DNA of 19,211 nucleotides, from the IMG/VR virus record IMGVR_UViG_2687453529_000007; one strand, 5' to 3'. Each line of letters starts with the position of its first letter. Position 1 is the first letter of the stretch. Both the position numbers and the translations under genes were made by a program. The notes beneath the pieces are model-generated. The model worked only from the letters and a program-made list of their open reading frames with translations, was not told the origin of the DNA and ran no database searches. Below are positions 1 through 18,419 of this stretch, piece after piece. Source of the stretch: a virus. Its lineage: Duplodnaviria; Heunggongvirae; Uroviricota; Caudoviricetes.

Positions 1-924
1 GTGGCAAAGCAAAAGTTCAAAATCACCAACTGGCCCACCTACAATAAAGCCCTCATCAACCGTGGCTCCATAACTTTCTGGCTGGATGATGAAGCTATTC
101 AGGCCTGGTATGAGTCAGCAACACCTTCTTCACGAGGCAGACCTCAGCGCTATTCTGACCTTGCCATCACGACTGTGCTGGTCATTAAACGCGTATTCAG
201 GCTGACCCTGCGCGCTGCGCAGGGCTTTATTGATTCCATTTTTTCTCTGATGAACGTTCCGCTACGCTGCCCGGATTACAGCTGTGTCAGCAGGCGGGCA
301 AAGTCGGTTAATATCAGTTTCAAAACGCCCACCCGGGGTGAAATCGCACACCTGGTAATTGATTCCACCGGGCTGAAGGTCTTCGGTGAAGGCGAGTGGA
401 AAGTCAAAAAGCATGGCCAGGAACGCCGTCGTATATGGCGTAAGCTGCATCTGGCAGTTGACAGTAAAACACATGAAATCATCTGCGCTGACCTGTCGCT
501 GAACAACGTTACGGACTCAGAGGCCTTCCCCGGGTTAATCCGGCAAACCCACCGGAAAATCAGGTCAGCCGCCGCCGATGGAGCTTACGATACCCGGCTC
601 TGTCACGATGAACTGCGGCGTAAGAAAATCAGCGCGCTTATCCCGCCCCGAAAAGGTGCGGGTTACTGGCCCGGTGAATATGCAGACCGTAACCGTGCAG
701 TGGCTAATCAGCGAATGACCGGGAGTAATGCGCGGTGGAAATGGACAACAGATTACAACCGTCGCTCGATAGCGGAAACGGCGATGTACCGGGTAAAACA
801 GCTGTTCGGGGGTTCACTGACGCTGCGTGACTACGATGGTCAGGTTGCGGAGGCTATGGCCCTGGTACGAGCGCTGAACAAAATGACGAAAGCAGGTATG
901 CCTGAAAGCGTGCGTATTGCCTGA
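1..924 (+). CDS. IS903/IS5-family DDE transposase (307 aa)
   Basis: Full-length ORF MAKQKFKITNW...MPESVRIA, near-identical along its length to the IS903/IS102 transposase as recalled from memory. Confidence 0.9.
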   Translation: MAKQKFKITNWPTYNKALINRGSITFWLDDEAIQAWYESATPSSRGRPQRYSDLAITTVLVIKRVFRLTLRAAQGFIDSIFSLMNVPLRCPDYSCVSRRAKSVNISFKTPTRGEIAHLVIDSTGLKVFGEGEWKVKKHGQERRRIWRKLHLAVDSKTHEIICADLSLNNVTDSEAFPGLIRQTHRKIRSAAADGAYDTRLCHDELRRKKISALIPPRKGAGYWPGEYADRNRAVANQRMTGSNARWKWTTDYNRRSIAETAMYRVKQLFGGSLTLRDYDGQVAEAMALVRALNKMTKAGMPESVRIA

Positions 925-962
925 AAACACAACCCGCTACGGGGGAGACTTACCCGAAATCT

Positions 963-980
963 GATTTATTCAACAAAGCC
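963..980. repeat. IS903 right terminal inverted repeat
   Basis: GATTTATTCAACAAAGCC, matching the canonical 18-bp IS903 end. Confidence 0.8.
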
Positions 981-1508
981 ACGCGCTGGACACACCACGA
1001 TGACAGCGGTTTTATCCCTTACGCCATCACCACCGGCCTTGATTACGAGGCGATGACCGAACAGCGCAAAGGCTATGAGAACTTTGTTTATCAGAACGGC
1101 GTTTACGATCTCGGCACCAAAGGTGATATGCGACGTAACGAACGTAACCTGATGTGGAACCTCGATCCCTACATTCAAACGCACTGGCAGCTCACCTCAG
1201 CCCTGGGGCTGGACGCCGGGGCGCGCTATAGCTCGGTATGGTTTGATTCCAACGATCGTTATGTTGTAGGTAAAAATGGTGATGATAGCGGCGAAGCGAG
1301 CTATCACAAGTGGCTTCCGGCGGCAGCGCTGAAGTATGCCATGACGCCGCAGTGGAACGTTTACCTCTCTGCCGGGAGGGGATTTGAAACGCCGACCATT
1401 AACGAGCTGTCCTATCGTCCCGATGGTCAGTCCGGGCTTAACTTTGCTCTGCAACCGGCCACTAACACCACCGTTGAAGCAGGCAGTAAATGGCAGGTGG
1501 GCACCGGG
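981..1508 (+). pseudogene. Internal fragment of a TonB-dependent receptor-like outer membrane beta-barrel gene (no start, no native stop)
   Basis: Frame open directly from the IS end; translation contains TBDR-like barrel motifs (RGFETPTINELSY resembling the GF-R-APS/T-x-x-EL-Y motif; NFALQPATNTTVEAGSKWQ). Reads straight into lysC sequence in a different frame. Specific family not identified. Confidence 0.5.
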
Positions 1509-2635
1509 TGGAACGTCTGCGTTACCCGAACGTTATCCGTGAAGAGATTGAACGTCTGCTGGAGAACATTACTGTTCTGGCAGAAGCGGCGGCGCTGGCA
1601 ACGTCTCCGGCGCTGACAGATGAACTGGTCAGCCACGGCGAGCTGATGTCGACCCTGCTGTTTGTCGAAATCCTGCGCGAACGCGATGTTCAGGCACAGT
1701 GGTTTGATGTACGTAAAGTGATGCGTACCAACGACCGATTTGGTCGTGCAGAGCCAGATGTAGCCGCGCTGGCGGAACTGGCCGCGCTGCAGCTGCTCCC
1801 ACGCCTCAATGAAGGCTTAGTGATCACCCAGGGATTTATCGGTAGCGAAAATAAAGGTCGTACAACGACGCTTGGCCGTGGAGGCAGCGATTATACGGCA
1901 GCCTTGCTGGCGGAGGCTTTACACGCAACTCGTGTTGATATCTGGACCGACGTCCCTGGCATCTACACCACCGATCCACGCGTGGTTTCCGCAGCAAAAC
2001 GCATTGATGAAATCGCGTTTGCCGAAGCGGCAGAGATGGCAACTTTTGGTGCAAAAGTACTGCATCCGGCAACGTTGCTACCCGCAGTACGCAGCGATAT
2101 CCCGGTCTTTGTCGGCTCCAGCAAAGACCCACGCGCAGGTGGTACGCTGGTGTGCAATAAAACTGAAAATCCGCCGCTGTTCCGCGCGCTGGCGCTTCGT
2201 CGCAATCAGACTCTGCTCACTTTGCACAGCCTGAATATGCTGCATTCTCGCGGTTTCCTCGCGGAAGTTTTCGGCATCCTCGCGCGGCATAATATTTCGG
2301 TAGACTTAATCACCACGTCAGAAGTGAGCGTGGCATTAACCCTTGATACCACCGGTTCAACCTCCACTGGCGATACGTTGCTGACGCAATCTCTGCTGAT
2401 GGAGCTGTCTGCACTATGCCGGGTAGAAGTGGAGGAAGGTCTGGCGCTGGTCGCGTTGATTGGCAATGACCTGTCAAAAGCCTGCGGCGTTGGCAAAGAG
2501 GTATTCGGCGTACTGGAACCGTTCAACATTCGCATGATTTGTTACGGCGCATCCAGCCATAACCTGTGCTTCCTGGTGCCCGGCGAAGATGCCGAGCAGG
2601 TGGTGCAGAAGCTGCATTTTAATTTATTTGAGTAA
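1509..2635 (+). pseudogene. lysC: lysC (lysine-sensitive aspartokinase III) 3' remnant, lacking about the first 80 codons
   Basis: Translation ERLRYPNVIREEIERLLENITVLAEAAALATSPALTDELVSHGELMSTLLF...QKLHFNLFE is collinear with and near-identical to E. coli LysC from about residue 84 to the C-terminus. No lysC N-terminus or promoter; upstream sequence is the receptor fragment. Stop TAA at 2633-2635. Confidence 0.85.
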
Positions 2636-2647
2636 ACGATCAGTAGA

Positions 2648-2677
2648 GGTGAATAGCGACCCACGACGCTATTCACC
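2648..2677. terminator. Perfect 11-bp stem hairpin between convergent lysC remnant and Mor-like gene (possible bidirectional terminator or element boundary)
   Basis: GGTGAATAGCG-ACCCACGA-CGCTATTCACC; no clear U-tract on either side, so terminator function is uncertain. Confidence 0.3.
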
Positions 2678-2689
2678 ATGCCGGTTCAA

Positions 2690-3037
2690 TTACGAATTAC
2701 TGCGGCGCTGTTGCTTTTCCGCATGTACGCGTTTCACAATCTTATAAATCCATTGCAGCGTCAGATTATATTTCTTCGCTAATTCGGCGTAGTTGCGCCC
2801 ATCGCACTCGCTATAGATTTGGTAGTCACGCTCCGATGCTCGTCCGGAGATCCCCTTAGGGAAATAGATGCTTTGTCCGCCCCAGTTACGCATCATTCGG
2901 TCGGCAATGGCAAAACCCACATTTTCTGCCGATGAACTGTCGAGATTGATGCTTTCAATCAGAACTTGCGATGCATGAAAAGCCAGGTCGTTAATGATCT
3001 CCGGTGTCCGGGCCATCTCTTTTGATTTTCGTATCAT
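2690..3037 (-). CDS. Mor/C-family (phage Mu middle/late operon regulator-like) transcriptional activator, 115 aa
   Basis: C-terminal region DGRNYAELAKKYNLTLQWIYKIVKR aligns with the Mu Mor helix-turn-helix region NGRNVSELTTRYGVTFNTVYKAIRR; GGAG RBS 7 nt upstream of the ATG; divergent from the lysis/tail genes. Confidence 0.75.
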   Translation of the reverse strand: MIRKSKEMARTPEIINDLAFHASQVLIESINLDSSSAENVGFAIADRMMRNWGGQSIYFPKGISGRASERDYQIYSECDGRNYAELAKKYNLTLQWIYKIVKRVHAEKQQRRSNS

Positions 3038-3258
3038 TTTTCATCTCCATATATCTTGCATCCTGAATAAGACCCGATGCGTGTAAAACCACGGATATAC
3101 GCTAAGCAGTTGTCATTACTGCTACTCAATACATTCAATAAACAAATAAACAATCACCAAAAATATAAACTTTTAATATTAATGAACGTCATAAATTCAC
3201 GAAATAAATATATTGTTTGGATTATGTTTCTTATCAACAGGAGTATCATTTTACACTA

Positions 3259-3278
3259 TACTGTATACATATACAGTA
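3259..3278. promoter_or_regulatory. LexA (SOS) operator, near-consensus
   Basis: TACTGTATACATATACAGTA versus consensus TACTGTATATATATACAGTA (CTGT-N8-ACAG core intact, one mismatch). Lies in the AT-rich divergent region between the Mor-like gene and the lysis genes, flanked by -10/-35-like hexamers on both strands. Confidence 0.75.
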
Positions 3279-3574
3279 TTATTTTTACCTGTAGAGTAAA
3301 AAGATCGTTTCCCTCACAGTCGCTGACTTTCTTAAACAAACTTTAAAAATCAAATAACTATCGACTATTCCTACGATCCACCATCATCTTTCCCCTGCAT
3401 AATGACGCGCTTATTAGCCTGGTCACCTTTTGCTCTTTAATTGCTGAGTCGATTTATTAGCGGGCTTGTTCATTTATAGAGAATCTATTTTTTAAACTTA
3501 TTTATTAAAGCTTTTTTCATTCTTCACTGGCGGGTTCTGACGACACTAAACGCTCACTTATCAGGAGATATCGT

Positions 3575-3862
3575 ATGAAAAAAGTCACTTTTCCCCGGCT
3601 TTCCGGCTGGCTAGTCGCTTCCGCCGCGCTGTTTGTCGTGATCGGCTGGACCTCTTCCGCACAGATCCCGGTCGTCATTTATAAACTAAGCCTGGTTTCG
3701 CTTTCCGCGGTGCTGGGATACTGGCTCGATCGCAGTTTGTTCCCCTGGGCACGGCCTGACTCTTTTAGCCCCTGGAAGGAACCTCGTTGCTGCGCGGCGG
3801 CAATGATTCGCCGCGCCATCATCGTTGCCGCCGTCTGTCTTTCCGTCGCCTTAGGGCTATAG
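3575..3862 (+). CDS. Small multi-pass membrane protein, putative holin (95 aa)
   Basis: AGGAG RBS 7 nt upstream; three hydrophobic segments; stop overlaps the start region of the downstream lytic transglycosylase (TAGTGATG). Function inferred from position. Confidence 0.45.
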   Translation: MKKVTFPRLSGWLVASAALFVVIGWTSSAQIPVVIYKLSLVSLSAVLGYWLDRSLFPWARPDSFSPWKEPRCCAAAMIRRAIIVAAVCLSVALGL

Positions 3863-3864
3863 TG

Positions 3865-4470
3865 ATGTGGCTGAAATATATCGCGTCTATGATTATTTTC
3901 GTTCTTTTCCCGCTTAACGCCTCTGAACCGCCGCGAGCCTCTCTGGCATGGCGAAACGAACTAATTCGTACAGCTCGAGAAGTCTGGGGGCTGAATGCTC
4001 CAGTGGCCGACTTTGCCGGGCAATTACACCAGGAGTCCGCCTGGCAGCCAATGGTACGTTCCCCCGTTGGCGCACAAGGTATGGCGCAATTTATGCCTGC
4101 TACAGCGACATGGATAAGCCAGTTGTATCCACAATTGCGTGAAAACAAACCGTATAACCCAACCTGGGCGATTCGCGCGCTGGTGCAATATGACCAGCAT
4201 TTGTGGAAAAACATCTCTGCGAAAAATGATTGTCAGCGTATGGCGTTTACCCTAAGCGCCTATAACGGCGGTCAGGGGTGGGTTAACCGGGATAAAAAAC
4301 TGGCTGCATCCAAAGGGTTAGATGCCACTAGCTGGTTTGGTCATGTTGAGCAAGTCAACGCCGGGCGCAGCGCCACGAACTGGCGAGAAAATCGTCGCTA
4401 TCCAAAGATGATCCTCTATCAACATGCCGCCCGCTATTTACTCTGGGGACAGGCAAGCTGTCTTCATTAA
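3865..4470 (+). CDS. Phage lytic transglycosylase (SLT domain) endolysin with N-terminal signal/SAR-like hydrophobic segment
   Basis: N-terminal MWLKYIASMIIFVLFPLNA hydrophobic stretch, then SLT motifs (LHQESAWQP with catalytic Glu, GMAQFMPATA, AYNGG). The track ORF 3787-4470 begins earlier with a non-ATG codon; ATG at 3865 sits directly after the holin stop. Confidence 0.8.
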   Translation: MWLKYIASMIIFVLFPLNASEPPRASLAWRNELIRTAREVWGLNAPVADFAGQLHQESAWQPMVRSPVGAQGMAQFMPATATWISQLYPQLRENKPYNPTWAIRALVQYDQHLWKNISAKNDCQRMAFTLSAYNGGQGWVNRDKKLAASKGLDATSWFGHVEQVNAGRSATNWRENRRYPKMILYQHAARYLLWGQASCLH

Positions 4471-4482
4471 TCAGAGGGGCCG

Positions 4483-4797
4483 ATGAAACTCAGTATCGAT
4501 TTTTGGGAAGTGATCTCCCTTATGCTTTCCTTCGTTGGATTAATGTTTGCTGCCGGAAAACTGCTGTTAGCACAAATTGAAAAACGACTTAATGAGCGTT
4601 TTGAGTCTCTGGAAAATGCCCGCAGGGAATCAGAAACAAGTTGGTCGAAACTGGAAAGAGAATTTCTCGAATTTCGTGCCGAGCTTCCGCTGCATTATGT
4701 CCGCAGAGAAGATTATCTTCGTGGGCAAGCAGTATTAGAAGCGAAGCTGGATGCCTTATATAGCAAAATCGAGCTGTTACAACGTGGCAGTTATTGA
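4483..4797 (+). CDS. Lysis accessory protein, Rz/i-spanin-like (N-terminal TM helix + coiled coil), 104 aa
   Basis: N-terminal TM segment EVISLMLSFVGLMFAAGKLLLA followed by charged coiled-coil-like sequence; position after the endolysin. No convincing embedded lipoprotein (o-spanin) ORF found by eye. Confidence 0.4.
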   Translation: MKLSIDFWEVISLMLSFVGLMFAAGKLLLAQIEKRLNERFESLENARRESETSWSKLEREFLEFRAELPLHYVRREDYLRGQAVLEAKLDALYSKIELLQRGSY

Positions 4798-4802
4798 AAA
4801 AT

Positions 4803-4834
4803 CCCCACCCTTATGTAAGGGTGGGGATTTTTTT
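4803..4834 (+). terminator. Rho-independent terminator closing the lysis cassette
   Basis: CCCCACCC-TTATGTAA-GGGTGGGG stem-loop followed by ATTTTTTT; an A-run upstream makes it potentially bidirectional. Confidence 0.85.
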
Positions 4835-4941
4835 AACCATTCAATTTTTTCTCTAAATCACATTAAAAGATTCTTCACCTTCGCTGCTTCAGAATACATT
4901 TCAACGATAACGAAGTGAGCGGTAATTAAGGTACAGCCTAT

Positions 4942-5397
4942 ATGGAAATTTTATCTGTAATGAATTCTGTTGTGACCAGATTACGTGAACACAACTCCGA
5001 AATGGATATATTTATTTCATCTAAGGATGCCCAGAAATATATTCCACAGACACAACGAGTTGCAGTGATTATTAATTATAGCGGTTCTGTCTTTGCTACG
5101 CCCGAAAGCAGTAATGCCATCGTGCAACAGCAAATACTCCGCTTAACCGCCACCGTTATTGTTGGCAAAAATTGTGATGCATTAAACGCACTTGATCACA
5201 TACGCAGCGCATTGGGTGGCCTTCCGCTTCCTGATTGTGATCGTCTGCTTTGGCTTGAAAAAGAAATTAATACGGGTGAGAGCGGCGGTTTCTGCCGCTA
5301 CATCCTGGAAATGGCGACCAGCTCGCTGTTTATCGCTGAACAGGAAAGCACGGATCTTCCCCTGCTTACGGAAGTTAACTACGAGGAAACTGAATGA
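4942..5397 (+). CDS. Putative tail completion / sheath-terminator-like protein (151 aa)
   Basis: First gene after the terminator, immediately upstream of a small ORF and the sheath gene, coupled to the next ORF. Family assignment is by position only. Confidence 0.35.
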   Translation: MEILSVMNSVVTRLREHNSEMDIFISSKDAQKYIPQTQRVAVIINYSGSVFATPESSNAIVQQQILRLTATVIVGKNCDALNALDHIRSALGGLPLPDCDRLLWLEKEINTGESGGFCRYILEMATSSLFIAEQESTDLPLLTEVNYEETE

Positions 5398-5591
5398 AAT
5401 ACATCTACAACGGCCCAGCAAGCGGCGTCACCCTTGCCGATGGACAAGAAATCTTATTGTGGCCGAACAGTGAAATTGATCTGCCAGAAGACAACGAGTG
5501 GGTCATGACCATGATTGCCCGCAATCATCTGACTCCTGTCATCACTCAGGAAGAACAAAATAACGTAGAGGAAATTGTACATGGCAGCTAA
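5394..5591 (+). CDS. Small conserved phage tail-module protein (65 aa) preceding the sheath gene
   Basis: GAGGAA RBS; ATG overlaps the upstream stop (ATGA); 3' end overlaps the sheath start by 11 nt. Function unknown. Confidence 0.4.
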   Translation: MKYIYNGPASGVTLADGQEILLWPNSEIDLPEDNEWVMTMIARNHLTPVITQEEQNNVEEIVHGS

Positions 5592-7005
5592 TTATCTGCA
5601 CGGTGTAGAAACTATTGAAATTGAAACCGGCCCGCGTCCGGTTAAAGCGGTAAAATCCGCCGTCATCGCTTTAATCGGTACATCCCCCTGCGGTCCGGTA
5701 AATAAACCAACATTATGCCTTTCTGAAAGCGATGCTGCGCAGTTTGGCTCGACTCAGGCTAACTTTACGATCCCACAGGCACTGAAGGCAATTTATGACC
5801 ACGGTGCCGGTACGGTGGTGGTGATTAACGTGCTGGATCCGGCAAAACATGGCTCCAACATCAGCAATGAGAGTATCACTTTTGATGCTAACAACCAGGC
5901 GAAGCTCGCTCACCGCAATGTGCGTAACGTGGTACTAAAGCCCTCTTCATCAAATTCATCAACCTTTAACACCGCAGCATTTAGCGTAGATGAACAAACA
6001 GGCATAATTACCCGTAAAGGAGCCGACATTCCTCCTGGTGCGAAAGTTTGTGCCTATTATTCCTGGTGCGACCCTACAAAGGTCACCGCAGCCGATATTA
6101 TCGGTACCGTAAATACCGCAGGCGACCGCACGGGGATGAAACTCCTTCAGGACACCTATAACCTGTACGGTTTCTACGCCAAAATCCTGCTTGCTCCTGT
6201 GTTTTGTACGCAAAAATCGGTGACTACTGAGCTGATTGCACAAGCGGAAAAACTCGGTGCGATTACCTACATTGATGCCCCGATTGGGACAACATTCCAG
6301 CAGGTATTGGCTGGACGCGGTTCGCAAGGGGCTATCAACTTCAATACCAGCTCTGATCGTGCGCGTTTATGTTACCCACATGTCAAAGTTTACGATGGCA
6401 TCACTAACCAGGAAATTCTTGAGCCTCTCTCTTCGCGTGCTGCCGGGCTGCGTGCCAAAGTAGACCTCGAAAAAGGTTTCTGGTGGAGCAACTCAAACCA
6501 GGAAATTCAGGGTATTACCGGTATTGAACGTTCGCTTTCCGCAATGATTGATGATCCACAAAGCGAAGTGAATCAGCTCAACGAAAACGGCATTACCACT
6601 ATTTTCAATAGTTACGGCTCTGGTCTGCGCTTGTGGGGTAACCGCACAGCGGCATGGCCTACCGTGACCCATATGCGTAACTTTGAAAACGTCCGCCGGA
6701 CAGGCGATGTAATCAATGAGTCAATCCGTTATTTCAGTCAGCAGTATATTGATATGCCGATTAATCAGGCACTTATTGACGCGCTGACCGAATCGGTAAA
6801 TACCTGGGGCCGAAAACTGATTGCCGACGGCGCACTGCTTGGCTTTGAGTGCTGGTACGATCCGGCACGAAATTCACCGGCTGAACTCAGCGCCGGGCAT
6901 TTATTGCTGAGCTATAAATTCACCCCGCCACCGCCGCTGGAACGTCTGACGTTTGAAACTGAAATTACTTCTGAATATTTAGTCTCTCTGGAGAGCAATA
7001 GCTAA
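5581..7005 (+). CDS. Contractile tail sheath protein (P2 gpFI-like)
   Basis: N-terminus MAANYLHGVETIEIETG resembles P2 FI (YHHGVQVLEINEG) and the C-terminus LLSYKFTPPPPLERLTFETEITSEYL resembles P2 FI ([26 protein letters not shown]). GAGG RBS 9 nt upstream of ATG 5581; the track ORF begins at TTG 5575. Confidence 0.9.
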   Translation: MAANYLHGVETIEIETGPRPVKAVKSAVIALIGTSPCGPVNKPTLCLSESDAAQFGSTQANFTIPQALKAIYDHGAGTVVVINVLDPAKHGSNISNESITFDANNQAKLAHRNVRNVVLKPSSSNSSTFNTAAFSVDEQTGIITRKGADIPPGAKVCAYYSWCDPTKVTAADIIGTVNTAGDRTGMKLLQDTYNLYGFYAKILLAPVFCTQKSVTTELIAQAEKLGAITYIDAPIGTTFQQVLAGRGSQGAINFNTSSDRARLCYPHVKVYDGITNQEILEPLSSRAAGLRAKVDLEKGFWWSNSNQEIQGITGIERSLSAMIDDPQSEVNQLNENGITTIFNSYGSGLRLWGNRTAAWPTVTHMRNFENVRRTGDVINESIRYFSQQYIDMPINQALIDALTESVNTWGRKLIADGALLGFECWYDPARNSPAELSAGHLLLSYKFTPPPPLERLTFETEITSEYLVSLESNS

Positions 7006-7529
7006 TGGCTGGAAAAATTCAAATTAACCGTATTACCAACGCCAATATTTATCTCGATGGTAATAACCTTTTAGGTCGTGCAACAGAAATTAAATTGCCG
7101 GATGTAAGTTTAATTATGCAGGAGCATAAAGCACTGGGCATGGTGGGTAAAATCGAACTCCCGGCAGGTTTCGATAAACTGGAGGGCGAAATTAAATGGA
7201 ACTCCTTCTATCAGGACGTAATGCGTAAAACGGCAAACCCGTGGCAGGCGGTTGCATTACAGTGCCGCTCCAGTATTGATTGCTATAACTCCCAGGGGAA
7301 AGCGAATCAATTAGCGCTAGTGACACATTTAACCGTGATGTTTAAAAAGAATCCACTGGGCACATTTAAACAGAATGAAAACCCGGAATTCAGCAGCGCC
7401 TTTGGTTGCACTTATATTAAACAAGTAGTTGATGGTGAAACGCTGCTTGAACTTGATTATATGGCCAATATTTTCCGGGTTAATGGTGTGGATCAATTAA
7501 GTACCTATCGCAATAACATCGGTGGCTAA
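7005..7529 (+). CDS. Tail tube protein (P2 gpFII-like)
   Basis: Start overlaps the sheath stop; C-terminus NGVDQLSTYRNNIGG matches the P2 FII end NGVDRLEQHRRNIGL. Confidence 0.85.
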   Translation: MAGKIQINRITNANIYLDGNNLLGRATEIKLPDVSLIMQEHKALGMVGKIELPAGFDKLEGEIKWNSFYQDVMRKTANPWQAVALQCRSSIDCYNSQGKANQLALVTHLTVMFKKNPLGTFKQNENPEFSSAFGCTYIKQVVDGETLLELDYMANIFRVNGVDQLSTYRNNIGG

Positions 7530-7579
7530 GTTATTCGGGGCTACGGCCCCGAACTTTGCAAAATAAATAAGGACACAAA

Positions 7580-7897
7580 ATGAAAGAACATTATATCTTG
7601 CAGTTTCCATTTACGTCGGCAGCAGGAAATAATATCGACACGCTGCAATTACGTCGCCTGAAAGTAAAAGATATGCGCAACGCCCGCCGGATCAGCGAAA
7701 AGCCAGAAGAGTGGGATGAACCGCTGATGGCGGCGATGACCGGACTGGTGCCAGAAGATTTAGCCGAAATGGATTTGCTGGATTACCAGGCATTGCAGAA
7801 ACGATTTCAATCCATGCTTACCGTGGTTACAGAATCCTCCCCTGCTATGGCAGGCAATGGCGCTACTGGCGAGATGGTTTCGCTTTCCGCCCAGTGA
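7580..7897 (+). CDS. Tail assembly chaperone (gpE/gpG-like), short product
   Basis: Small acidic protein between tube and tape measure genes, the position of frameshifting tail chaperones. Confidence 0.6.
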   Translation: MKEHYILQFPFTSAAGNNIDTLQLRRLKVKDMRNARRISEKPEEWDEPLMAAMTGLVPEDLAEMDLLDYQALQKRFQSMLTVVTESSPAMAGNGATGEMVSLSAQ

Positions 7898-7985
7898 GAT
7901 AGACGCCCTTACCGTCGATGACTTTAGCAACTGGCTGGATGAAGCCAGCGCCCAAATAAAAATCGAATATGACTCGCAGACCTGA
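7580..7985 (+). CDS. Frameshift-extended chaperone isoform (E+E'-like), requiring a +1 shift
   Basis: A +1-frame ORF is open from 7764 to the TGA at 7983-7985 and would append ...PPSEIDALTVDDFSNWLDEASAQIKIEYDSQT. The only candidate shift motif seen is CTT_TCC at 7883-7888. Site and mechanism are not proven. Confidence 0.4.
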
Positions 7986-8086
7986 TGTCTGCGAGTTTCC
8001 CAAGCCCGTCAGGTTTATTTCTTCCCTGCCCCTTTTTTTAGAAAAATAACCAGCGGGCCATTATCAATATTTAAAGAGAAACAATT

Positions 8087-8887
8087 TTGGCCAACGATAT
8101 TATTACCCAGCTTCAGGCGCGTAATGAGACGTTGACGCAGGCAATAGCCCGTTACGGCTCACTCAACGCCAGAACATTGTTAACTCTCTCTACTCAGCAG
8201 GCGACAGTTATCAAACTAACGCAGCAGCTTGCCGATTCCGCTCTCCGCCTGGAGGAAAATAGCCGCAGCCGCGCTAATCTGATGGAGAAAACCCAAACAT
8301 TTGCCGGGCAATTTAGCAAAGTATTCAATGTTGAAGCCCCCGACTGGAAGTTGCCGTATGAGTTTCAGGACAACATGGTCAATATGGCGACCAAAGGTGG
8401 GATGAATGCTACAACCCGCGAGACGCTCAGCCTTAATCTGCGCGACTGGAGCATGGATTTTAACCAGCAGCAGACCACCTTACAGAACGCAGCCCAAACG
8501 CTGATCGAAGGCAATTTGTCGTCGATGCAGGATCTCAACCGTTATATGCCGGAGATCGCCAAAGCTGCCACCGCCACGCGCGAAAGTGCTGAAACGTGGG
8601 CGAATGCCGCGCTCGCGACTCATGATCGACTGAATATTGCCCCGGAAAATTTCCACGCCGCGCAAAACATGATGTACGGCATTAGCAAAAGCGGTGGGCC
8701 TGCCATTGCTGAACAAACGCAGTGGATAGAGAAATTTGCAGGTAAAACCGGCGCTCAGGGTCTGGAAGGTATGGCTGAACTGACTGCCGCCATGCAGATC
8801 GCAATGAAAAATGGGGCCAGCGCCAGTGCGGCGGCGGAGAATTTTGAACCACTTTCTGCAAACCACCTTTTCGAAAAAAACCGATAG
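8087..8887 (+). CDS. Tail tape measure protein, N-terminal segment (frame A); TTG start
   Basis: Helical N-terminal region typical of tape measure proteins; ends at TAG 8885-8887 while a second frame continues. In-frame stop at 8072-8074 restricts the start to the TTG at 8087 (RBS AAGAG upstream). Confidence 0.6.
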   Translation: MANDIITQLQARNETLTQAIARYGSLNARTLLTLSTQQATVIKLTQQLADSALRLEENSRSRANLMEKTQTFAGQFSKVFNVEAPDWKLPYEFQDNMVNMATKGGMNATTRETLSLNLRDWSMDFNQQQTTLQNAAQTLIEGNLSSMQDLNRYMPEIAKAATATRESAETWANAALATHDRLNIAPENFHAAQNMMYGISKSGGPAIAEQTQWIEKFAGKTGAQGLEGMAELTAAMQIAMKNGASASAAAENFEPLSANHLFEKNR

Positions 8888-10463
8888 CTGGTTCGCCAGC
8901 CAGGGCGTCGATCTGCAAGGCTCTCTGCTTGAACATCAGCAAAACGGTATGGGTGTTAGCGAAGCCATGACTCATATCGTACAAATGCAGCTTGAGAAGA
9001 TGAACCCGGCGATCCTCGACACCTTCAAACGTACTATGCAGATTGAAGATTTATCTGCTCGCAGCAATGCGCTGCAATCGATGGTGTCGCAATTTAATCT
9101 GGGCGAAATGTTCGGCGATGTGCAAACGGTGGAATTCCTGGCACCTATGCTGGCGAATATGGAGGAATATCGCCAGTTAAAAGCCTCTGCCATGCAAGCC
9201 ACCAGCAAGAATCTGATTAACGCTGACTTTTCTGCGCAAATGGCCTCGCCCATTGAACAGACTAAAGCGTTACAGCTGGCATTAAATGATTTATGGCTCA
9301 GCATTGGTTTGCAGCTTATGCCGGCGATTGGCGAGCTGGCACAAAGCCTTACGACGGTTATTCGCCAGTTCAGCGCCTGGCTACGCGAACATCCGGCGCT
9401 GGTGCAAAACATTGCGAAAATCGTCGGGGCGGTTTGGCTGTTTAACGGCGCGCTGAATGTTTTAAAGCTGGGCGCGAACCTCATCACCTCGCCGTTTATT
9501 CGTCTGGTCGATATCTTCCTGAAAGTCAAGGCAAGTCTGGCGCTCACAGGCGGGGCAAGTAAGATGCTATCAGCGGTTAAGTCATTGGGTGGCGGCGCAA
9601 AATGGCTAATGCAACTGCTTGGTCGTGGCCTGATTGGCGCACTGAAACAGGTAGGTCAGACCGTCTTCTGGTTGGGTAGGGTTTTATTGATGAATCCCAT
9701 TGGTCTGGTCATCACTGCGATTGCGGGCGCTGCTTATCTGATTTGTCGCAACTGGGAGCCTATCTCCAGGTTCTTTTCGACCATCTGGCAACGTATCACC
9801 ACGGCCTTTGACGGCGGCATTGCAGGAATTTGTCGGTTGATTCTCGACTGGTCACCGCTGGAGTTGTTCTATAGCGCCTTTTCCAGTGTGATGAATTGGT
9901 TTGGTGTCGAGATGCCTGCAAGTTTTAGCGAGTTCGGCAGCAATCTTCTGGGCAGTCTGGTTGACGGCATAATGAATGCCTTCCCCGCTCTGAAAGGCAT
10001 TATTGATCAGGTAAAAAACGCCATCCCAGACTGGCTAAAAACCACGATGGGTATTAGTACAGAAGGATCGGCTACAGCTATTACAAGCACGACTAATACC
10101 GCATCCGTCTCCCCCGCGACCGTTGTTCCAGGCGTTGCCGGTGCGATTTTAACACCGCCGGTGGGCAAACAACTCGCGCCATCCGGCAAAACGGCTACGC
10201 CGTCATCGGCGCCAGCGGCAAAAAATACAGCCGCCAAACCCGTATCTGCCTCTTTACCTGGTAAATCCGTAACCAAACCGGCGACGCTACCCTCCCGTTC
10301 CTCAGGAAAAGTCCAGGTAAATTTTTCGCCACAAATTACCGTGCAGGGTAACGGACAAAACACCACTAAAGAGATTCAGAACGTGTTGACGATGAGTAAA
10401 CGCGAACTGGAAAGAATGATTAACGATGTAATGGCGCAGCAGCAGCGCCGGGGGTATGCCTGA
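8811..10463 (+). CDS. Tail tape measure protein, main/C-terminal segment (frame B, +1 relative to frame A)
   Basis: Frame B opens after the TGA at 8805-8807 and encodes typical tape-measure content (LQTTFSKKTDSWFASQGVDLQ motif region, long hydrophobic/Gly-Ala-rich middle, Ser/Thr/Pro-rich tail). Segments together total about 790 aa. Confidence 0.65.
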   Translation: MGPAPVRRRRILNHFLQTTFSKKTDSWFASQGVDLQGSLLEHQQNGMGVSEAMTHIVQMQLEKMNPAILDTFKRTMQIEDLSARSNALQSMVSQFNLGEMFGDVQTVEFLAPMLANMEEYRQLKASAMQATSKNLINADFSAQMASPIEQTKALQLALNDLWLSIGLQLMPAIGELAQSLTTVIRQFSAWLREHPALVQNIAKIVGAVWLFNGALNVLKLGANLITSPFIRLVDIFLKVKASLALTGGASKMLSAVKSLGGGAKWLMQLLGRGLIGALKQVGQTVFWLGRVLLMNPIGLVITAIAGAAYLICRNWEPISRFFSTIWQRITTAFDGGIAGICRLILDWSPLELFYSAFSSVMNWFGVEMPASFSEFGSNLLGSLVDGIMNAFPALKGIIDQVKNAIPDWLKTTMGISTEGSATAITSTTNTASVSPATVVPGVAGAILTPPVGKQLAPSGKTATPSSAPAAKNTAAKPVSASLPGKSVTKPATLPSRSSGKVQVNFSPQITVQGNGQNTTKEIQNVLTMSKRELERMINDVMAQQQRRGYA

Positions 10464-11416
10464 TGTATGCCGTTTTAGGAGAGATTGAATTTAAGGTTGT
10501 CACATTCTGGGACGGCTTTAAAAGCACAATGGGCGTGGATTACGCCACACATGCCCGTATAGAAGGCAAACCCGGCGTGCAGTTTATTGGCGATAAGCTG
10601 GATATGCTGGCGCTGGAATTTTCCCTGCACAGCCAGTTTTGCCAGCCCACAACAGAGCTGAACCGACTGCGTGAAGCCATGCTTGCTCACAAGGCGATGG
10701 CACTGGTATTTGGCAATGGCGATTATCGCGGCTGGTTTGTGATTACGGAGCTAACCGCCACCCACCAGCACACCGATCCCTGGGGCAATGTGATTGCCCA
10801 AAACGGAACGATGTCGCTCCAGGAGTACACCGGCGATCCTAAAAATCCACTTTTACCTCCGGCGATTACCACCCAGGAGCCCAACATCGAGGAAAAGGCG
10901 AGCGATTTTCCCGACAAGGTGGAGTCCTGGTTTGATCAGATATTAAACGCCATCGAAGAAGGTATGCGTAAGGCCAAAGAGATGCTGGATGAACTGACAC
11001 AAGCCATTGAAGATATTAAAAAAACGGTGGCAAAAGTGAAAGCAATGATTAAAGAGGCCAAAGCGTTAAAAGAAAAGTGTGAAAAGATAATTACGTCATT
11101 GAAAAAGACAATCGACGCCATCGAAACCCTGTTTAAACAGCCAATGGATCTGCAAACGCTGGCAGGACTCCCAAAAGCGTTGTCGGCGCAGATTAAAACT
11201 TTACTGGGTAACATGCCAGGTATCCGGGACTGCGCCAATGACGCCAGTACACTGGTTGACCATGCTCAGGCGCTTTTCGACGACATTACCAGCGACATCG
11301 CCGAAGCGACGTTTGATAAAGCCGCAACGTTGGTTGATCAGGCACGAACAACGGTACAACAAACCACTCCCACAGTGAGCCAGCTTGCTGCCGCGACCAT
11401 TACGAGGATCTGGTGA
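10463..11416 (+). CDS. gpU-like tail protein with long C-terminal coiled-coil extension (317 aa)
   Basis: Sits between tape measure and gpX/gpD as P2 gpU does; ATG overlaps the tape measure stop (TGATG). C-terminal ~190 aa are E/K/A-rich predicted coiled coil. Assigned by synteny and weak N-terminal resemblance. Confidence 0.5.
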   Translation: MYAVLGEIEFKVVTFWDGFKSTMGVDYATHARIEGKPGVQFIGDKLDMLALEFSLHSQFCQPTTELNRLREAMLAHKAMALVFGNGDYRGWFVITELTATHQHTDPWGNVIAQNGTMSLQEYTGDPKNPLLPPAITTQEPNIEEKASDFPDKVESWFDQILNAIEEGMRKAKEMLDELTQAIEDIKKTVAKVKAMIKEAKALKEKCEKIITSLKKTIDAIETLFKQPMDLQTLAGLPKALSAQIKTLLGNMPGIRDCANDASTLVDHAQALFDDITSDIAEATFDKAATLVDQARTTVQQTTPTVSQLAAATITRIW

Positions 11417-11625
11417 TGCGATACCTTGAACATATCACCACCGACGGCGAACGCTGGGATAATCTGGCATGGCATTACTACGGTGATGCGCTGGCTTATG
11501 AACGCATAATCGCCGCCAATCCACATGTAGCCATTTACCCGGTACTGCCTTCCGGTATTCAGCTCATTATTCCGGTCATTTCCGTCAATAAAACCTTATC
11601 GGAGATCCCACCATGGCTGAGATAA
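11416..11625 (+). CDS. gpX-like small tail protein (LysM-like fold)
   Basis: Pattern L-x-x-I-x-x-x-x-ERWD-x-L-A-W-x-YYGD...AANP...LPSG matches the P2 gpX family; ATG 11416 overlaps the upstream TGA (track start 11413 is a GTG). Confidence 0.6.
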   Translation: MRYLEHITTDGERWDNLAWHYYGDALAYERIIAANPHVAIYPVLPSGIQLIIPVISVNKTLSEIPPWLR

Positions 11626-12653
11626 GCGTAACTGGTGGCGTCTTTGCCACACTCACGCCCATTTTTACCCTCTGGTATGGGCATAAAGATATCACTTATG
11701 ACATCACACCCTATGTCACCAGCATCAGTTACCACGACAGCATCAAAAACGAGTCGGATACCATCGCAATTACACTGGATGACACAGATGGACGCTGGAT
11801 AAAAGAGTGGTATCCCGGCAAAGGCGATACGCTGGCGCTGCATATGGGTTATCAGGGAGAGAAGCTGCTCGATTGTGGTCAGTATATTATTGATAAAATT
11901 GATATTTCAGCGCCACCTTCTACGGTAAATATTGATGGCATCGCCACTTCCGTCAATCAGGCGCTGCGCACCCGTAACAGCCAGGGTTTTGAAGAAACGA
12001 CGCTTTCGGCTATCGCCAGCCGTATCGCACAAACTCACGGCCTAAAGCTGGTGGGCAAAATCGAGCCTCTGACAATTGACCGGGTGACACAGTACGGCGA
12101 AACCGATGTTGGATTTCTCAAACGTCTGGCCAGTGAATATGGTTATGCCGTAAAAGTGACGACGAAAGAGCTGATTTTTTCACATTTACCCACGCTGCGC
12201 TGCCTGGCACCTGTGAAAAAGATCGACCGCAAAGACGTTTCGCATTTCACCTTCAAAGATACCATTAACCGTATCTACAAAAACGCCACCGTACAGCATC
12301 AAAATAGTAAGAAAAAAGAACTGGTTATCTACACTCACAACAGCCAGCAAAAACCGTCTGCCCGTGGAGTCGGCACCAGTGCCGACACGCTAAAACTGAA
12401 CAGTCGGGCGACGGACGTTGGCGCAGCACAGGCAAAAGCCAACGCTGCACTCGACAGCCACAACGAATATCAGCAAACCGGAACGCTCACAATGATGGGC
12501 TGCCCGGAACTGACGGCGGGCAATAAAATCGAGCTAACCGATTTTGGCGTGCTTTCCGGTCAATGGCTAATTGATAAATCGACTCACAGTTTTGTGCGCA
12601 GCGGCTATACCACTGAAATCGACGTGTCGCGCGGGCCAGCGACCAGCCAGTAA
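11613..12653 (+). CDS. gpD-like tail protein (late control D family; baseplate hub)
   Basis: Collinear similarity to P2 gpD: TLSAIASRIAQ / DVGFLKRLASEYG / C-terminal DFGVLSGQWLIDKSTHSFVRSGYTTEIDV. GGAG RBS. Confidence 0.8.
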   Translation: MAEISVTGGVFATLTPIFTLWYGHKDITYDITPYVTSISYHDSIKNESDTIAITLDDTDGRWIKEWYPGKGDTLALHMGYQGEKLLDCGQYIIDKIDISAPPSTVNIDGIATSVNQALRTRNSQGFEETTLSAIASRIAQTHGLKLVGKIEPLTIDRVTQYGETDVGFLKRLASEYGYAVKVTTKELIFSHLPTLRCLAPVKKIDRKDVSHFTFKDTINRIYKNATVQHQNSKKKELVIYTHNSQQKPSARGVGTSADTLKLNSRATDVGAAQAKANAALDSHNEYQQTGTLTMMGCPELTAGNKIELTDFGVLSGQWLIDKSTHSFVRSGYTTEIDVSRGPATSQ

Positions 12654-12662
12654 GGAGGAAAT

Positions 12663-13364
12663 ATGAAAGGAGTAACCCGTCAAACGGGGATTATCAGCGA
12701 TATTGACGAAACCAGCGTTCGGGTGCGGGTCACGCTCCCGGAGTGTGACAATCTGAAGAGCAACTGGCTTGCGGTACTTCAACGCAATTCCCAGGACAAT
12801 AAAGACTACTGGCTACCGGATATGGGCGAGCAAGTGGAAGTTCTGCTGGACAATAACGGTGAAGATGGCGTGGTGCTGGGCGCAGTTTATTCTACGGTTG
12901 ACACCGCGCCTGTAGCCTCGCGCGACAAACGTTACGTCCAGTTTTCTGATGGCGCAGCGTTTGAATATGACCGCAGCACGCACCAGCTGACGATCAACGG
13001 CGGTATCGAGAAAATCGTGATTGAGGTTATCAACGGTACCTGCCTGACATCGCCCAACGTTGAGATTAAAGCCCAACAGGTCACCGTGACTTCCGATACC
13101 GTCGATGTTAAAGCGACCGATGTCAGCATCGACGCCACTAAGGTCGAGGTTAAAGCAGCAGCAGTGACGGTAGATGCGCCCATGAGCACCTTTACTGGCA
13201 ACGTCACGGTAATGAAAAAACTCACCTGGCTTGGCGGGATGGCAGGAAGTGGAGGCATCGGTAACGCAGCCACGATAACCGGCAATGTCAACGTGATCGG
13301 CAACGTTCAGGCCAGCGGCGCATTGCAGGACAGCGGTGGCAACTCCAACCACCATTCACACTGA
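12663..13364 (+). CDS. gpV-like baseplate spike protein
   Basis: Strong RBS TAAGGAGG; MGEQVEVLLDNNGEDGVVLGAVYS and VQFSDGAAFEYDRSTHQLTINGG match P2 gpV motifs; C-terminal His-rich tip NHHSH. Confidence 0.85.
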   Translation: MKGVTRQTGIISDIDETSVRVRVTLPECDNLKSNWLAVLQRNSQDNKDYWLPDMGEQVEVLLDNNGEDGVVLGAVYSTVDTAPVASRDKRYVQFSDGAAFEYDRSTHQLTINGGIEKIVIEVINGTCLTSPNVEIKAQQVTVTSDTVDVKATDVSIDATKVEVKAAAVTVDAPMSTFTGNVTVMKKLTWLGGMAGSGGIGNAATITGNVNVIGNVQASGALQDSGGNSNHHSH

Positions 13365-13369
13365 CGTTT

Positions 13370-13399
13370 AACCCGCCTGATGGCGGGTTTTCTCTTTTT
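13370..13399 (+). terminator. Intrinsic terminator inside the tail gene cluster (between gpV-like and gpW-like genes)
   Basis: AACCCGCC-TGAT-GGCGGGTT stem-loop followed by TTCTCTTTTT. Confidence 0.7.
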
Positions 13400-13462
13400 A
13401 ATCAATCAGTTTTCTAAATCGCTTTAATATCTCCACAGCCCGTTCAGGGCGAAAATACCCTC

Positions 13463-13822
13463 ATGAACACAAAAACACGCCCCTCAACGCTGCACTGGCA
13501 ACCGGCCTTGCTGCGGCCTGAAGAATACGTCTGCGGACTGGATGATATTCACCAGGCAATACACATCATTCTGCGTACACCGCGCGGCAGTGATCCCCAC
13601 AGACCGCTGTTTGGCAGCAACTTGTGGCACTACATCGATTACCCCATCGAGCGGGCTATCCCGCATGTGGTACGGGAGTCGGTGGAAGCCATCCGCCAGT
13701 GGGAACCGCGCTGTCGGTTGCTGAAGGTGACACCAGTAATCGACGGCGAACATCTGACGTTACGTGTGCAATGGCGCGCCGCTGACGGCGTTATCAACTC
13801 AACGGAGGTGTTATGGCGATAG
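13463..13822 (+). CDS. gpW-like baseplate protein (GPW/gp25 family)
   Basis: ILRTPRGSDPHRPLFGSNLWHYIDYP and WEPR match P2 gpW (ILRTPVGSRVMRRDYGSLL...IDQP, KWEPR). Confidence 0.85.
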   Translation: MNTKTRPSTLHWQPALLRPEEYVCGLDDIHQAIHIILRTPRGSDPHRPLFGSNLWHYIDYPIERAIPHVVRESVEAIRQWEPRCRLLKVTPVIDGEHLTLRVQWRAADGVINSTEVLWR

Positions 13823-14928
13823 CCGAACCCAATTTTATTGACCGCGATCCTGCGCAAATTACCAGTGAGATGATTGCGCAATACGAAGATGCCAGTGGTA
13901 AAAAACTCTATCCGGCACAGGCTGAGCGGTTGCTCATCGACCTGTTTGCCTATCGTGAAAACCTTGTACGCATCGCCATTCAGGAAGCGGCGAAACAAAA
14001 CCTGGTCGCGTATTCCCGCGCGCCAATGCTGGATTATTTAGGAGAGCTGGTGGGCGTTCACCGTTTGCCTGCGCAGCCAGCAAAAACGACGTTGCAGTTT
14101 TCGGTCGTCAGTGCGTATACCAGCAATATCCTGATTCCCCAGGGGACGCGGGCCAGTGCCTCTGATAGCGTGATGTTCGCCACCGATGAAGATGTTCTGC
14201 TTCCGGCCTGGAGTTTGCATATCGCCGTTCCTGCCACCAGCCTCGCAGCAGGTGAACAGGGTAACGGCTGGCAGCCTGCACAAATTAGCGCTCTGGTCGA
14301 CAGGATTGGTCATTATGACATCAACGTAACCAACCTGACTGCGTCAACGGGCGGCTGCGGTGAAGAGAGCGATGACGCATTGCGCCAGCGTATCCAACTG
14401 GCACCAGAAAGCTTTAGTAATGCGGGCAGCTATGGCGCATACCGCTTTCATACGCTTTCTGTTAGCCAGTCGATTATTGACGTTGCAGTACTGGGGCCGG
14501 ACGAGGGATTGCCAGAAGGCTGCGTGGAGATCTACCCGCTAACCCTGAATGGACTGCCAGGAATAGAACTGCTCGCGCAAATCGAACAGGAGGTTAGCAA
14601 GGAGAAAAAACGTCCGCTGACCGACAAAGTGAGTGCGAAATGCGCTCTTCGAGTGCCGTATGAGATCCGTGCGCAGCTAACGCTGTTTACCACCGCCGAT
14701 CAGGAGACAACGCTGGCTGCGGCGCGTAAAGCGATTAGCCTCTGGACGCAACAGCGGCAGAAACATCTGGGGCAAGACATTGTGCCAAACCAGATAATCA
14801 AAGTGTTACAGGTCGATGGCGTCTATGACGTTGCGCTGAACTTGCCTACAAAACGTATTTTGCAGGCGCATGAATGGGCGGAATGCACTGCAATAGACGT
14901 CACGATCGCCGGAGTTAGCGATGGATAA
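13813..14928 (+). CDS. gpJ-like baseplate wedge protein
   Basis: Size, position after gpW and overlapping start (GGAGG RBS) fit the P2 gpJ / Mu gp47 family. Confidence 0.8.
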   Translation: MAIAEPNFIDRDPAQITSEMIAQYEDASGKKLYPAQAERLLIDLFAYRENLVRIAIQEAAKQNLVAYSRAPMLDYLGELVGVHRLPAQPAKTTLQFSVVSAYTSNILIPQGTRASASDSVMFATDEDVLLPAWSLHIAVPATSLAAGEQGNGWQPAQISALVDRIGHYDINVTNLTASTGGCGEESDDALRQRIQLAPESFSNAGSYGAYRFHTLSVSQSIIDVAVLGPDEGLPEGCVEIYPLTLNGLPGIELLAQIEQEVSKEKKRPLTDKVSAKCALRVPYEIRAQLTLFTTADQETTLAAARKAISLWTQQRQKHLGQDIVPNQIIKVLQVDGVYDVALNLPTKRILQAHEWAECTAIDVTIAGVSDG

Positions 14929-15637
14929 ATTGCTACCACCGCCGCCGCTTGCCAGCGATGAGCGTTTTTCGATTCTGGCAAATATCGCCGCCGAGCGTTT
15001 TGCCCAACTCGATCTGACGGCGTTGATGGTTTATCTGGTCGACCTGGTTGATGCTTCGGCATTACCAGCCCTTGCAGAACAATTTCACGTTCAGGGGTTG
15101 GAAGGTTGGTTATTTACCACCGATGAGCGGGAGAAACGCGAGTTAATTAAACAAGCCATTGAACTGCATAAATATAAAGGAACAATTTGGGCGGTGCGGC
15201 GGGTGCTGGAAATACTCTCCTTACCCGGAACTATTTCAGAATGGTTTGAATATGGGGGAAGGGCTTACTTTTTTAAGGTTGATATTACACTAGAGAAAAA
15301 AGGATTAAATGAAGATGAATTCAATGCACTTATCACATTAATTCATGAATATAAAAATGTCCGTTCAAAGCTGGAAAGCATTGTTATTTGGCTTATTAAT
15401 CGAAGCCCAATACCAGTTATTGGCAGTGCCATGCAAGGAGGGGAAGTCATTACAGTATTGCCTCCTGTTGCAGAAAGCCTCAGCCAGTCATCTGGAATAT
15501 TTTTAGCGACAGGTTATTGTGTGGAGGAATATATTCAACTACTACCTTATCAACCCGATCGACTAACACAATCCCAACCGATGAAGGTCGGCACAGGATA
15601 CTGGAGCACCGAAATTATGTCTGTATATCCGGAGTAA
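14921..15637 (+). CDS. gpI-like baseplate/tail protein
   Basis: [15 protein letters not shown] matches P2 gpI HCHKGTIGAIRRVVE; overlaps the gpJ-like stop. Confidence 0.8.
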
Positions 15638-15639
15638 TA

Positions 15640-17250
15640 ATGGCAAGTGAATTTTTTACAATATTAACTGCTGCAGGCAAAGCCAAAATTGCCTCAGCAC
15701 TGGCCGAGCAAAAACAGATCCGTCTGCAAACTATGGTAGTTGGCGACGGTAATGGTAAATATATCGAACCGACAGAAAGTCAGACCAAAGTAGTCCATGA
15801 GGTCTGGCGTGGTCAGCTCAATACATTAAAAATTGCGCCAGATAATCCGGCCTGGGTTATCGCAGAAGCGATTATTCCCGAACAAGTCGGAGGCTGGTAT
15901 GTACGCGAAGTTGGGTTACTGGATACCGACGGCACGATGGTCGCTATTGGTAAATTCCCGGAAACCTATAAGCCACGATTACCTGCGGGGGCCAGTAAGC
16001 AAATCGTTATACGCGCGGTCATGGAAGTCACCAATGCAGATGCGGTGACGCTTTTGATCGACCCTTCAGTCGTTGTGGCAACCAGGGAATATGTCGATGA
16101 CGCGTTGAAAACACATCAGCAATCACGAAATCATCCTGATGCGACGCTGACACAAAAAGGTTTTACGCAGCTGAGTAATGCGACTAATAGCGATGATGAA
16201 ACCAAAGCGGCCACGCCAAAAGCGGTAAAAACGGCATATGACCTGGCAAATAGCAAAGCTGCCACCAGTCATAATCATGCCTGGAATCAGATTACTGGTA
16301 TCCCTGATGGTACACTGACGCAGAAAGGAGTCGTTAAGCTTAACAATACAACAAATAGCACCAGTACGACGGAAGCTGCAACACCAAGTGCGGTTAAGGC
16401 AGCGATGGATAAGGCTATTGCTGCGGCACCGTCCAGCCATACCCATGCCTGGGGGCAAATAACAGGTATCCCCGACGGTACGCTGACGCAAAAAGGGGTC
16501 GTGAAACTTAATAATGCGACCAACAGCACCAGTACGACGGAAGCTGCAACGCCGAACGCTGTTAAGGCAGCGATGGATAAGGCTATTGCTGCGGAAAGCT
16601 GTCCTGTTGGGATGCCTATTCCCTGGCCATCTGATTCTGTACCTTCAGGCTACGCTCTGATGACAGGTCAGACATTTAATAAAACCTCCTATCCCAAACT
16701 GGCAATTGCATATCCATCTGGTGTTATTCCTGATATGCGCGGATGGATAATTAAAGGAAAACCATCCAGTGGGCGCGCTATATTATCTACTGAACTGGAT
16801 GGAGTTAAATCACATAACCATACGGGCAGTATTTCGAGTACGGACTTAGGGACGAAATCTGTATCATCAATAGATCTAGGAACAAAGAACACTCAGTCAT
16901 TTAATCATGGGATAAAAACAACAAATACAGCAGGCGCGCATAGCCATGATAGTGGTTCTGGCGAAAGTAGTGAGGGGGGAAAACCTCGGTATGGTACTCG
17001 TGATAACACAACAAATAATTTTGGTTCTGGTGAATCAGATCATGACAATTACAAATTTAACACATCCACGGATGGAGAGCATGCACATTCAGTTAATGTT
17101 GGCTCACACTCTCACTCTGTTATTTTAGGGTCACATAATCATTCAATTGCCCTTGGTTCCCATAATCACTCCCTAACCATTAATAATACCGGCAACACCG
17201 AAAACACCGTCAAAAATATCGCATTCAACTATATTGTGAGGCTAGCATGA
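15640..17250 (+). CDS. Tail fiber protein (P2 gpH-like N-terminus, repeat-containing shaft, His-rich C-terminal receptor-binding region), 536 aa
   Basis: N-terminus [18 protein letters not shown]...HEVWRGQLN...[20 protein letters not shown]...[14 protein letters not shown] is collinear with P2 gpH. GGAG RBS 5 nt upstream of ATG 15640; the track ORF 15517 begins upstream inside the gpI-like gene. Confidence 0.85.
16267..16602 (+). repeat. Tandem 168-bp (56-codon) direct repeat, two copies, within the tail fiber gene
   Basis: Two near-identical units encoding SH(N/T)[47 protein letters not shown], with a degenerate third copy upstream; matches the phage tail fiber repeat class. Confidence 0.8.
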
Positions 17251-18406: not shown

Positions 18407-18419
18407 ATCACGCCGGGCT

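Follow-up and report, generated by a model that had tools for sequence, protein, structure and literature searches.

Tape measure proteins such as lambda gpH and P2 gpT are required for nucleation of the tail tube and determine how long it becomes. The lambda tail chaperone G/GT is made by a -1 programmed frameshift. The tail chaperone of phage Mu uses a -2 shift instead (PMC5009743). Low-level compensatory frameshifting at 'savior' indels is also documented, for example at the G7 run of the herpesvirus thymidine kinase (PMC5009743). Efficient transcriptional slippage in bacteria is reported for runs of about 9 A/T (PMC5009743).

The nearest relatives of the gene considered here are the Escherichia coli alleles encoding WP_022646414.1 (strains CFSAN061771, MS6198 and ECONIH1), from which the gene in the window (the whole 19,211-nt stretch that was analysed) differs by one inserted base only, and the Salmonella homologue EHB39190.1. 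Both are single uninterrupted ORFs, unlike the gene in the window. The homologous tail-gene segment in Salmonella comprises tube, chaperone, tape measure and GpU genes, and the record links the neighbours of the EHB39190.1 gene to LT2 STM4212 (tail tube) and STM4210 (GpU). A search of the literature on the E. coli and Salmonella tail cluster found no paper describing the E. coli element.

The divided tape measure gene

The gene in the window is carried on the + strand by two overlapping ORFs. The first, ORF1, runs from 8087 to 8887 and encodes 266 aa, with a TTG start, the one that RefSeq assigns to the identical gene, and a TAG stop at 8885-8887. The second, ORF2, lies in the +1 frame relative to ORF1; its frame is open from 8808, directly after a TGA at 8805-8807, and from its first ATG at 8811 to its end at 10463 it encodes 550 aa. 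The overlap is 77 nt. The original prediction of a tape measure gene in two frames, ORF1 at 8087-8887 and an ORF open from 8808 to 10463, with an A7 run at 8874-8880 and a CTT_TCT motif (in the ORF1 frame) at 8852-8857 within the 77-nt overlap, was therefore accurate as to coordinates and motifs.

It had also been proposed that both ORFs are parts of one tape measure protein of ~790 aa, and this is borne out by blastx and by the abutment of the matches to phrog_28. A blastx comparison with the Salmonella homologue gave two HSPs (both E = 0.0) meeting at residues 253/254: window 8087-8848 aligned with aa 1-254 of the Salmonella tape measure protein, and window 8844-10460, in the next frame, with aa 253-788. 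Identity was 67-71% in both fragments, the overall range given for this homologue being 67-76% at the aa level. With phrog_28 ('tail length tape measure protein'), residues 4-253 of ORF1 corresponded to profile positions 193-445 and residues 12-549 of ORF2 to 445-769, so that both fragments meet at one profile position; the repaired protein matched the same profile with E = 5e-127. PF10145 (PhageMin_Tail) matched residues 120-254 of ORF1, equivalent to profile positions 2-139 of 201, and in the repaired protein the match reached residue 305, at profile position 187, with the score rising from 40.3 to 43.6 bits (cut-off 33.2). ORF2 matched TIGR01760 at 35.9 bits (cut-off 28.8). Membership of the tape measure family is thus indicated by profile matches to PF10145, TIGR01760 and phrog_28, and the position of the gene after sheath, tube and a frameshift-extended chaperone and before baseplate genes, as shown by the ORFs of the window and by RefSeq for the identical locus, is the one expected of such a gene. 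On these comparisons ORF1 and ORF2 are, well beyond chance, two parts of a single 791-aa protein.

The limits of the two parts can be drawn closely. The 5' part in its native frame occupies 8087-8845 on the + strand (codons 1-253 after the TTG start, up to Phe254) and equals codons 1-254 of WP_022646414.1. The 3' part, from His256 to the stop and now in the +1 frame, occupies 8850-10463 on the same strand; it is identical to the intact E. coli allele and is matched by phrog_5690 as well. Between them lie two stretches without homology. ORF1 continues out of frame from 8846 to 8887 as EPLSANHLFEKNR before the TAG, and profile matches to it stop at residues 253-256; ORF2 begins with the out-of-frame head MGPAPVRRRRIL at 8811-8846 (+ strand), and profile matches to it begin at residue 12. 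Nothing matches the C-terminal 13 residues of ORF1 or the N-terminal 11 of ORF2, which represent out-of-frame read-through; the head of ORF2 is open by chance and is no real N-terminus.

Nothing beyond the ORF layout speaks for two genuinely separate genes, that is, for a naturally split tape measure. There is next to no prospect that this is correct, since the break at residue 254 falls within a single PhageMin_Tail domain (residues 120-305 of the intact protein), the two ORFs fill contiguous positions of the phrog_28 profile and the gene is a single one of 2,376 nt in the relatives examined, bar a few broken alleles. One continuous ORF for the whole ruler is found in those relatives, whereas in the window it is split at codon 255. 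The tape measure gene of the window is a disrupted member of the family and in effect a pseudogene.

The tail cluster, its chaperone gene and its flanks

The tape measure gene belongs to a 15.8-kb cluster located between lysC and a nucleotidyltransferase gene in the E. coli chromosome. This corresponds to window 2690-18406, and the cluster adjoins lysC in the three genomes whose flanks were read. RefSeq annotates Mor, then genes for a holin, for a protein with an SLT domain and for a membrane protein, followed by Gp37, sheath, tube, chaperone and tape measure; after these come a GpU-like protein, X, D, V, W, J and I, then the fibre gene and another two genes. Head, capsid, terminase, integrase and replication genes are absent from the RefSeq annotations. 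By annotation, the cluster thus has a Mor activator, a lysis cassette and a complete contractile-tail and baseplate-fibre module, which is a tailocin-like layout. The tail fibre gene (15517-17250) contains two adjacent 162-nt segments, 16265-16426 and 16433-16594, which off-diagonal BLAST found to be ~84% identical, and these represent a fibre module duplicated in tandem within the gene.

Directly upstream of the tape measure gene, in the same operon, lies the counterpart of the lambda- and Mu-type chaperone shift. The tail assembly chaperone gene occupies 7580-7897 on the + strand (Pfam Phage_TAC_7, E = 1.9e-19; 'phage tail assembly protein' in RefSeq), and it is overlapped by an ORF at 7800-7985, also on the + strand, that resembles a T/E' extension, reaches beyond the chaperone and occupies the +1/-2 rather than the -1 frame. 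This ORF is conserved with Salmonella at both the protein and the nucleotide level, GGTTTCGCTTTCCGCCCAGTGA being identical in both. Its match to PF06528 (Phage_P2_GpE) is weak (E = 0.0011) and below the curated cut-off, and RefSeq carries no annotation of a fused chaperone product. The arrangement of the extension is consistent with the -2 shift of phage Mu. The chaperone gene has a true programmed shift, which is a separate and known feature. The two-frame layout of the chaperone is kept in Salmonella, whereas the split of the tape measure gene was found in no relative and cuts through a domain rather than adding one.

At the left end of the window, positions 1-1508 comprise IS903B and a truncated TonB-dependent receptor gene, and are identical to the segment found directly downstream of ISEcp1-blaCTX-M-14 in other records. 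A chromosomal CTX-M-14 unit probably lies just upstream of the window. The IS903B unit is inserted 223 nt into lysC, with the junction at 1508/1509, and the 5' end of lysC and its riboswitch leader have consequently been lost here. An exact-product look-up of the resulting chimeric lysC ORF returned no record. An apparent second indel at window 1509 (1511-vs-1512 spans) was rejected as an alignment-end effect at the junction between the IS903B unit and lysC.

The site and distribution of the extra base

Alignments place the lesion at 8847-8848 on the + strand, where a 1-nt insertion gives AA and every relative has a single A. In alignment with the intact alleles the codon for Asp255 is changed from GAC to GAAC at 8846-8849 (gene nt 761/762), and a direct alignment reads GAATTTTG-ACCAC in relatives and GAATTTTGAACCAC in the window. 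The frame switch in the coordinates of both the Salmonella blastx and the PHROG and Pfam profile matches falls exactly at 8847/8848, and the lesion lies in an N-F-D-H-F-L motif that is conserved between Salmonella and E. coli. The sequence context, TTTTG-A-ACC, is not a homopolymer, and the extra A lies 26 nt upstream of the A7 run.

The original prediction had taken the A7 run as the break, with one A fewer fusing the frames, and this proved mistaken. Removal of one A from the run does restore a 791-aa ORF, but 10/11 of the intervening residues are then altered and no relative reads in this way. Related genomes had been expected to show one uninterrupted ORF through an A6 tract if the split was an assembly error; they do have the uninterrupted ORF, but it is provided by the single A at 8847 and not by an A6 tract. 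The run itself (8874-8880, + strand) is not the lesion. Intact alleles read it in frame, as TCG AAA AAA ACC (S-K-K-T), and it is kept in 5/5 E. coli alleles read base by base (CFSAN061771, CE10, S10, MRY15-117 and the window), a set of intact or near-intact alleles in which the four other than the window are divergent. The Salmonella homologue does not have the tract and reads TCG AAA GAG ACG at this point. When the 161-nt segment of the window was compared with 60 evenly sampled genomes, the segment was 160 nt in all 60, with no variation in length.

The CTTTCT hexamer (8852-8857, + strand) had been likened to the chaperone shift site, but it has no special status. The + strand of the window has five copies of CTTTCT and 19 of CTTTC, and intact alleles read CAC TTT CTG here, that is, in another frame. 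As a chaperone-like shift site it was rejected as a chance hexamer.

The coincidence of the A7 run with CUU_U motifs in the overlap, next to a chaperone gene with a true programmed shift, could point to evolved programmed recoding or to a phase-variable contingency tract controlling expression of the tape measure gene. What would mark either is a two-frame layout conserved in relatives or polymorphism in tract length. The A7 run and the CUU_U motifs of the overlap fall in another frame in intact alleles, where the run is read within S-K-K-T. No two-frame layout at the 8847 site was seen in any relative examined, and with five more distant homologues (Salmonella, two phage fragments, Escherichia phage PhiKM and a Pseudomonas phage) the alignment runs unbroken across the junction. 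The tract did not vary in length between strains and the indel does not lie inside it. Control of either kind is thus extremely improbable. Of the four explanations first offered, phase variation is rejected on the position of the lesion outside the A7 run, the constant segment length and the lack of the tract in Salmonella; programmed recoding is rejected on the single frame at this site in every relative examined, the different breakpoint of the only other frameshifted allele found and the one-piece alignment of the more distant homologues. Sequencing error and inactivating mutation survive.

The extra base is also rare to the point of being unique. The locus was found in 194/5,426 complete E. 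coli genomes and the insertion in 0/194. Each of the 30 matches listed for a 2,501-nt query spans 2,500 nt, and a 161-nt query across the site gave 194 records with a best identity of 99.4%, so that none is identical to the window segment. A 34-mer carrying the insertion in two allelic backgrounds (TTTTGAACC and TTTCGAACC) had 0 matches in the 5,426 complete E. coli genomes, in which the intact 33-mer control had 81. The corresponding insertion 31-mer had 0 matches in the species-representative genomes (genome_contigs) and 0 in metagenome_contigs, where the intact form had 3. It was absent from viral_contigs too, but this negative is uninformative because the intact allele is also absent there. 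Exact-product look-ups with ORF1, and with ORF2 read from ATG 8811 or from TTG 8844, found no record. The product read from ATG 8949 was found on five contigs, of which none (0/5) has the insertion, two having different stop mutations and three being contig ends. The insertion allele is therefore private to the window, as far as these collections extend. The three contigs, which come from different sequencing runs, all start 1-2 nt before ATG 8949, at about window 8947, and this shared start suggests a common assembly breakpoint, as might arise from a repeat, an inserted mobile element or a branch point of the assembly graph.

In other strains this gene has been broken independently by different lesions. 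In CE10 a nonsense codon interrupts it at codon 75, and Q284* is found in a Logan assembly (SRR29743667). A tet(A)/TnAs1 region cuts the FDAARGOS_497 gene at ~nt 956, and the match in DSM 101139 shows the same truncation, beginning at gene nt 957. The closest parallel to the window is FDAARGOS_1285 (I6K15_RS14975, flagged 'frameshifted' in RefSeq), in which a single-base insertion likewise splits the 791-aa ORF of the same gene in the same element. There, however, a C was added to a C5 run at gene nt 256, whereas in the window an A was added at gene nt 761/762 outside any homopolymer, and the two insertions are independent events. Further differences were seen in CH4796, which has a 24-nt in-frame deletion, and in ECONIH1, in which the baseplate J gene is 138 nt shorter. 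Since different strains have different lesions, the pattern is one of sporadic gene decay and not of a conserved two-frame arrangement. As the extra A was found in no other available genome, the split in the window is an ordinary private 1-nt insertion in a known kind of gene, a frameshift that is neither programmed nor phase-variable.

Mutation or artefact, and the consequences for the tail

It was considered from the outset that the split might be a sequencing error or an inactivating mutation, and both still stand. A sequencing or assembly artefact would mean that the gene is intact (GAC) and that the extra A arose in base calling or consensus polishing. Over-calling of one base as two is a known type of error on flow-based and single-molecule platforms. 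The allele has been seen exactly once and is unique among all sequences searched, in a 2.5-kb region that is otherwise identical to at least 30 other genomes, and the IS903B/lysC junction at 1508/1509 is spanned by no complete RefSeq E. coli genome; all of this speaks for an artefact. Against it, the assembly appears clean in this region. Over the 17.7 kb of window 1509-19211, the nearest genome (MS6198) differs by the extra A and by a G-to-A at 15296 only, so that the extra A is the only indel, and 82/82 homopolymers of >=5 nt, the usual sites of error, are at the reference length. Window 1-1508 is identical to the IS903B unit, and there is no other indel in 19.2 kb. The non-homopolymer context of the extra A and the frequency of real lesions in the tape measure genes of other strains argue in the same direction. 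An artefact accordingly keeps an appreciable, though less than even, chance of being the answer.

The substitution at 15296 is itself private: it changes GAA to AAA and thereby gives E126K in tail protein I, 0/194 genomes match the 401-nt segment around it at 100%, and the exact variant protein has no record. The presence of a second private change in a tail gene also leans towards a real mutation. It is slightly more likely that the mutation is real and inactivating than that the assembly is in error, and we infer that the extra base is present in the DNA of the organism and not just in the assembly. The preferred reading, to which a probability of about 0.55 can be given, is therefore a genuine, recent and private loss-of-function mutation in which one A was added to codon 255 of an otherwise intact 791-aa gene.

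If so, translation from TTG 8087 would run out of frame after Phe254 and stop at the TAG at 8885-8887, and the product would be a 266-aa fragment ending inside the PhageMin_Tail domain. The remaining 536 codons would have no convincing start site of their own; ATG 8811 has no Shine-Dalgarno-like sequence upstream, and the next ATG is at 8949. The cluster of this strain should then make no functional tails, an expectation that follows from the role of the tape measure protein known from lambda gpH and P2 gpT, which is taken to apply here.

A real insertion might also be partly compensated, either by slippage at the A7 run, with one A lost by RNA polymerase, or by a ribosomal +1 shift at CUU_U (8852-8855 or 8867-8870), so that a little 791-aa protein is made. 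The restoration of the full ORF by the loss of one A from the run is what makes such rescue conceivable. The run is of 7, however, as against about 9 A/T for efficient bacterial slippage, and neither a stimulatory element nor conservation is apparent, the latter because the relatives do not need a shift. The product would moreover carry an 11-residue patch, EPLSANHLFEK for DHFLQTTFSKK, in which 10 residues differ and which replaces the NFDHFL motif conserved from Salmonella to E. coli. The herpesvirus thymidine kinase 'savior' indel shares with the window a 1-nt indel close to a 7-nt homopolymer, but the indel in the window lies outside the run and has no selective rationale, and the parallel is purely hypothetical. 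Rescue of this kind is very unlikely; were it to occur, the locus would be a natural 'leaky' knock-down of a tailocin-like particle.

For annotation, the two ORFs should be entered as a single tape measure pseudogene with a frameshift, unless the extra base proves to be an error, in which case a correction is due; the A7 run should be given neither as a recoding site nor as a site of phase variation. Beyond annotation the split matters little. If the private mutation is real, the strain would be unable to build the contractile tail particles encoded beside lysC, and it would be a further instance of the sporadic decay that the element shows in other strains of E. coli.
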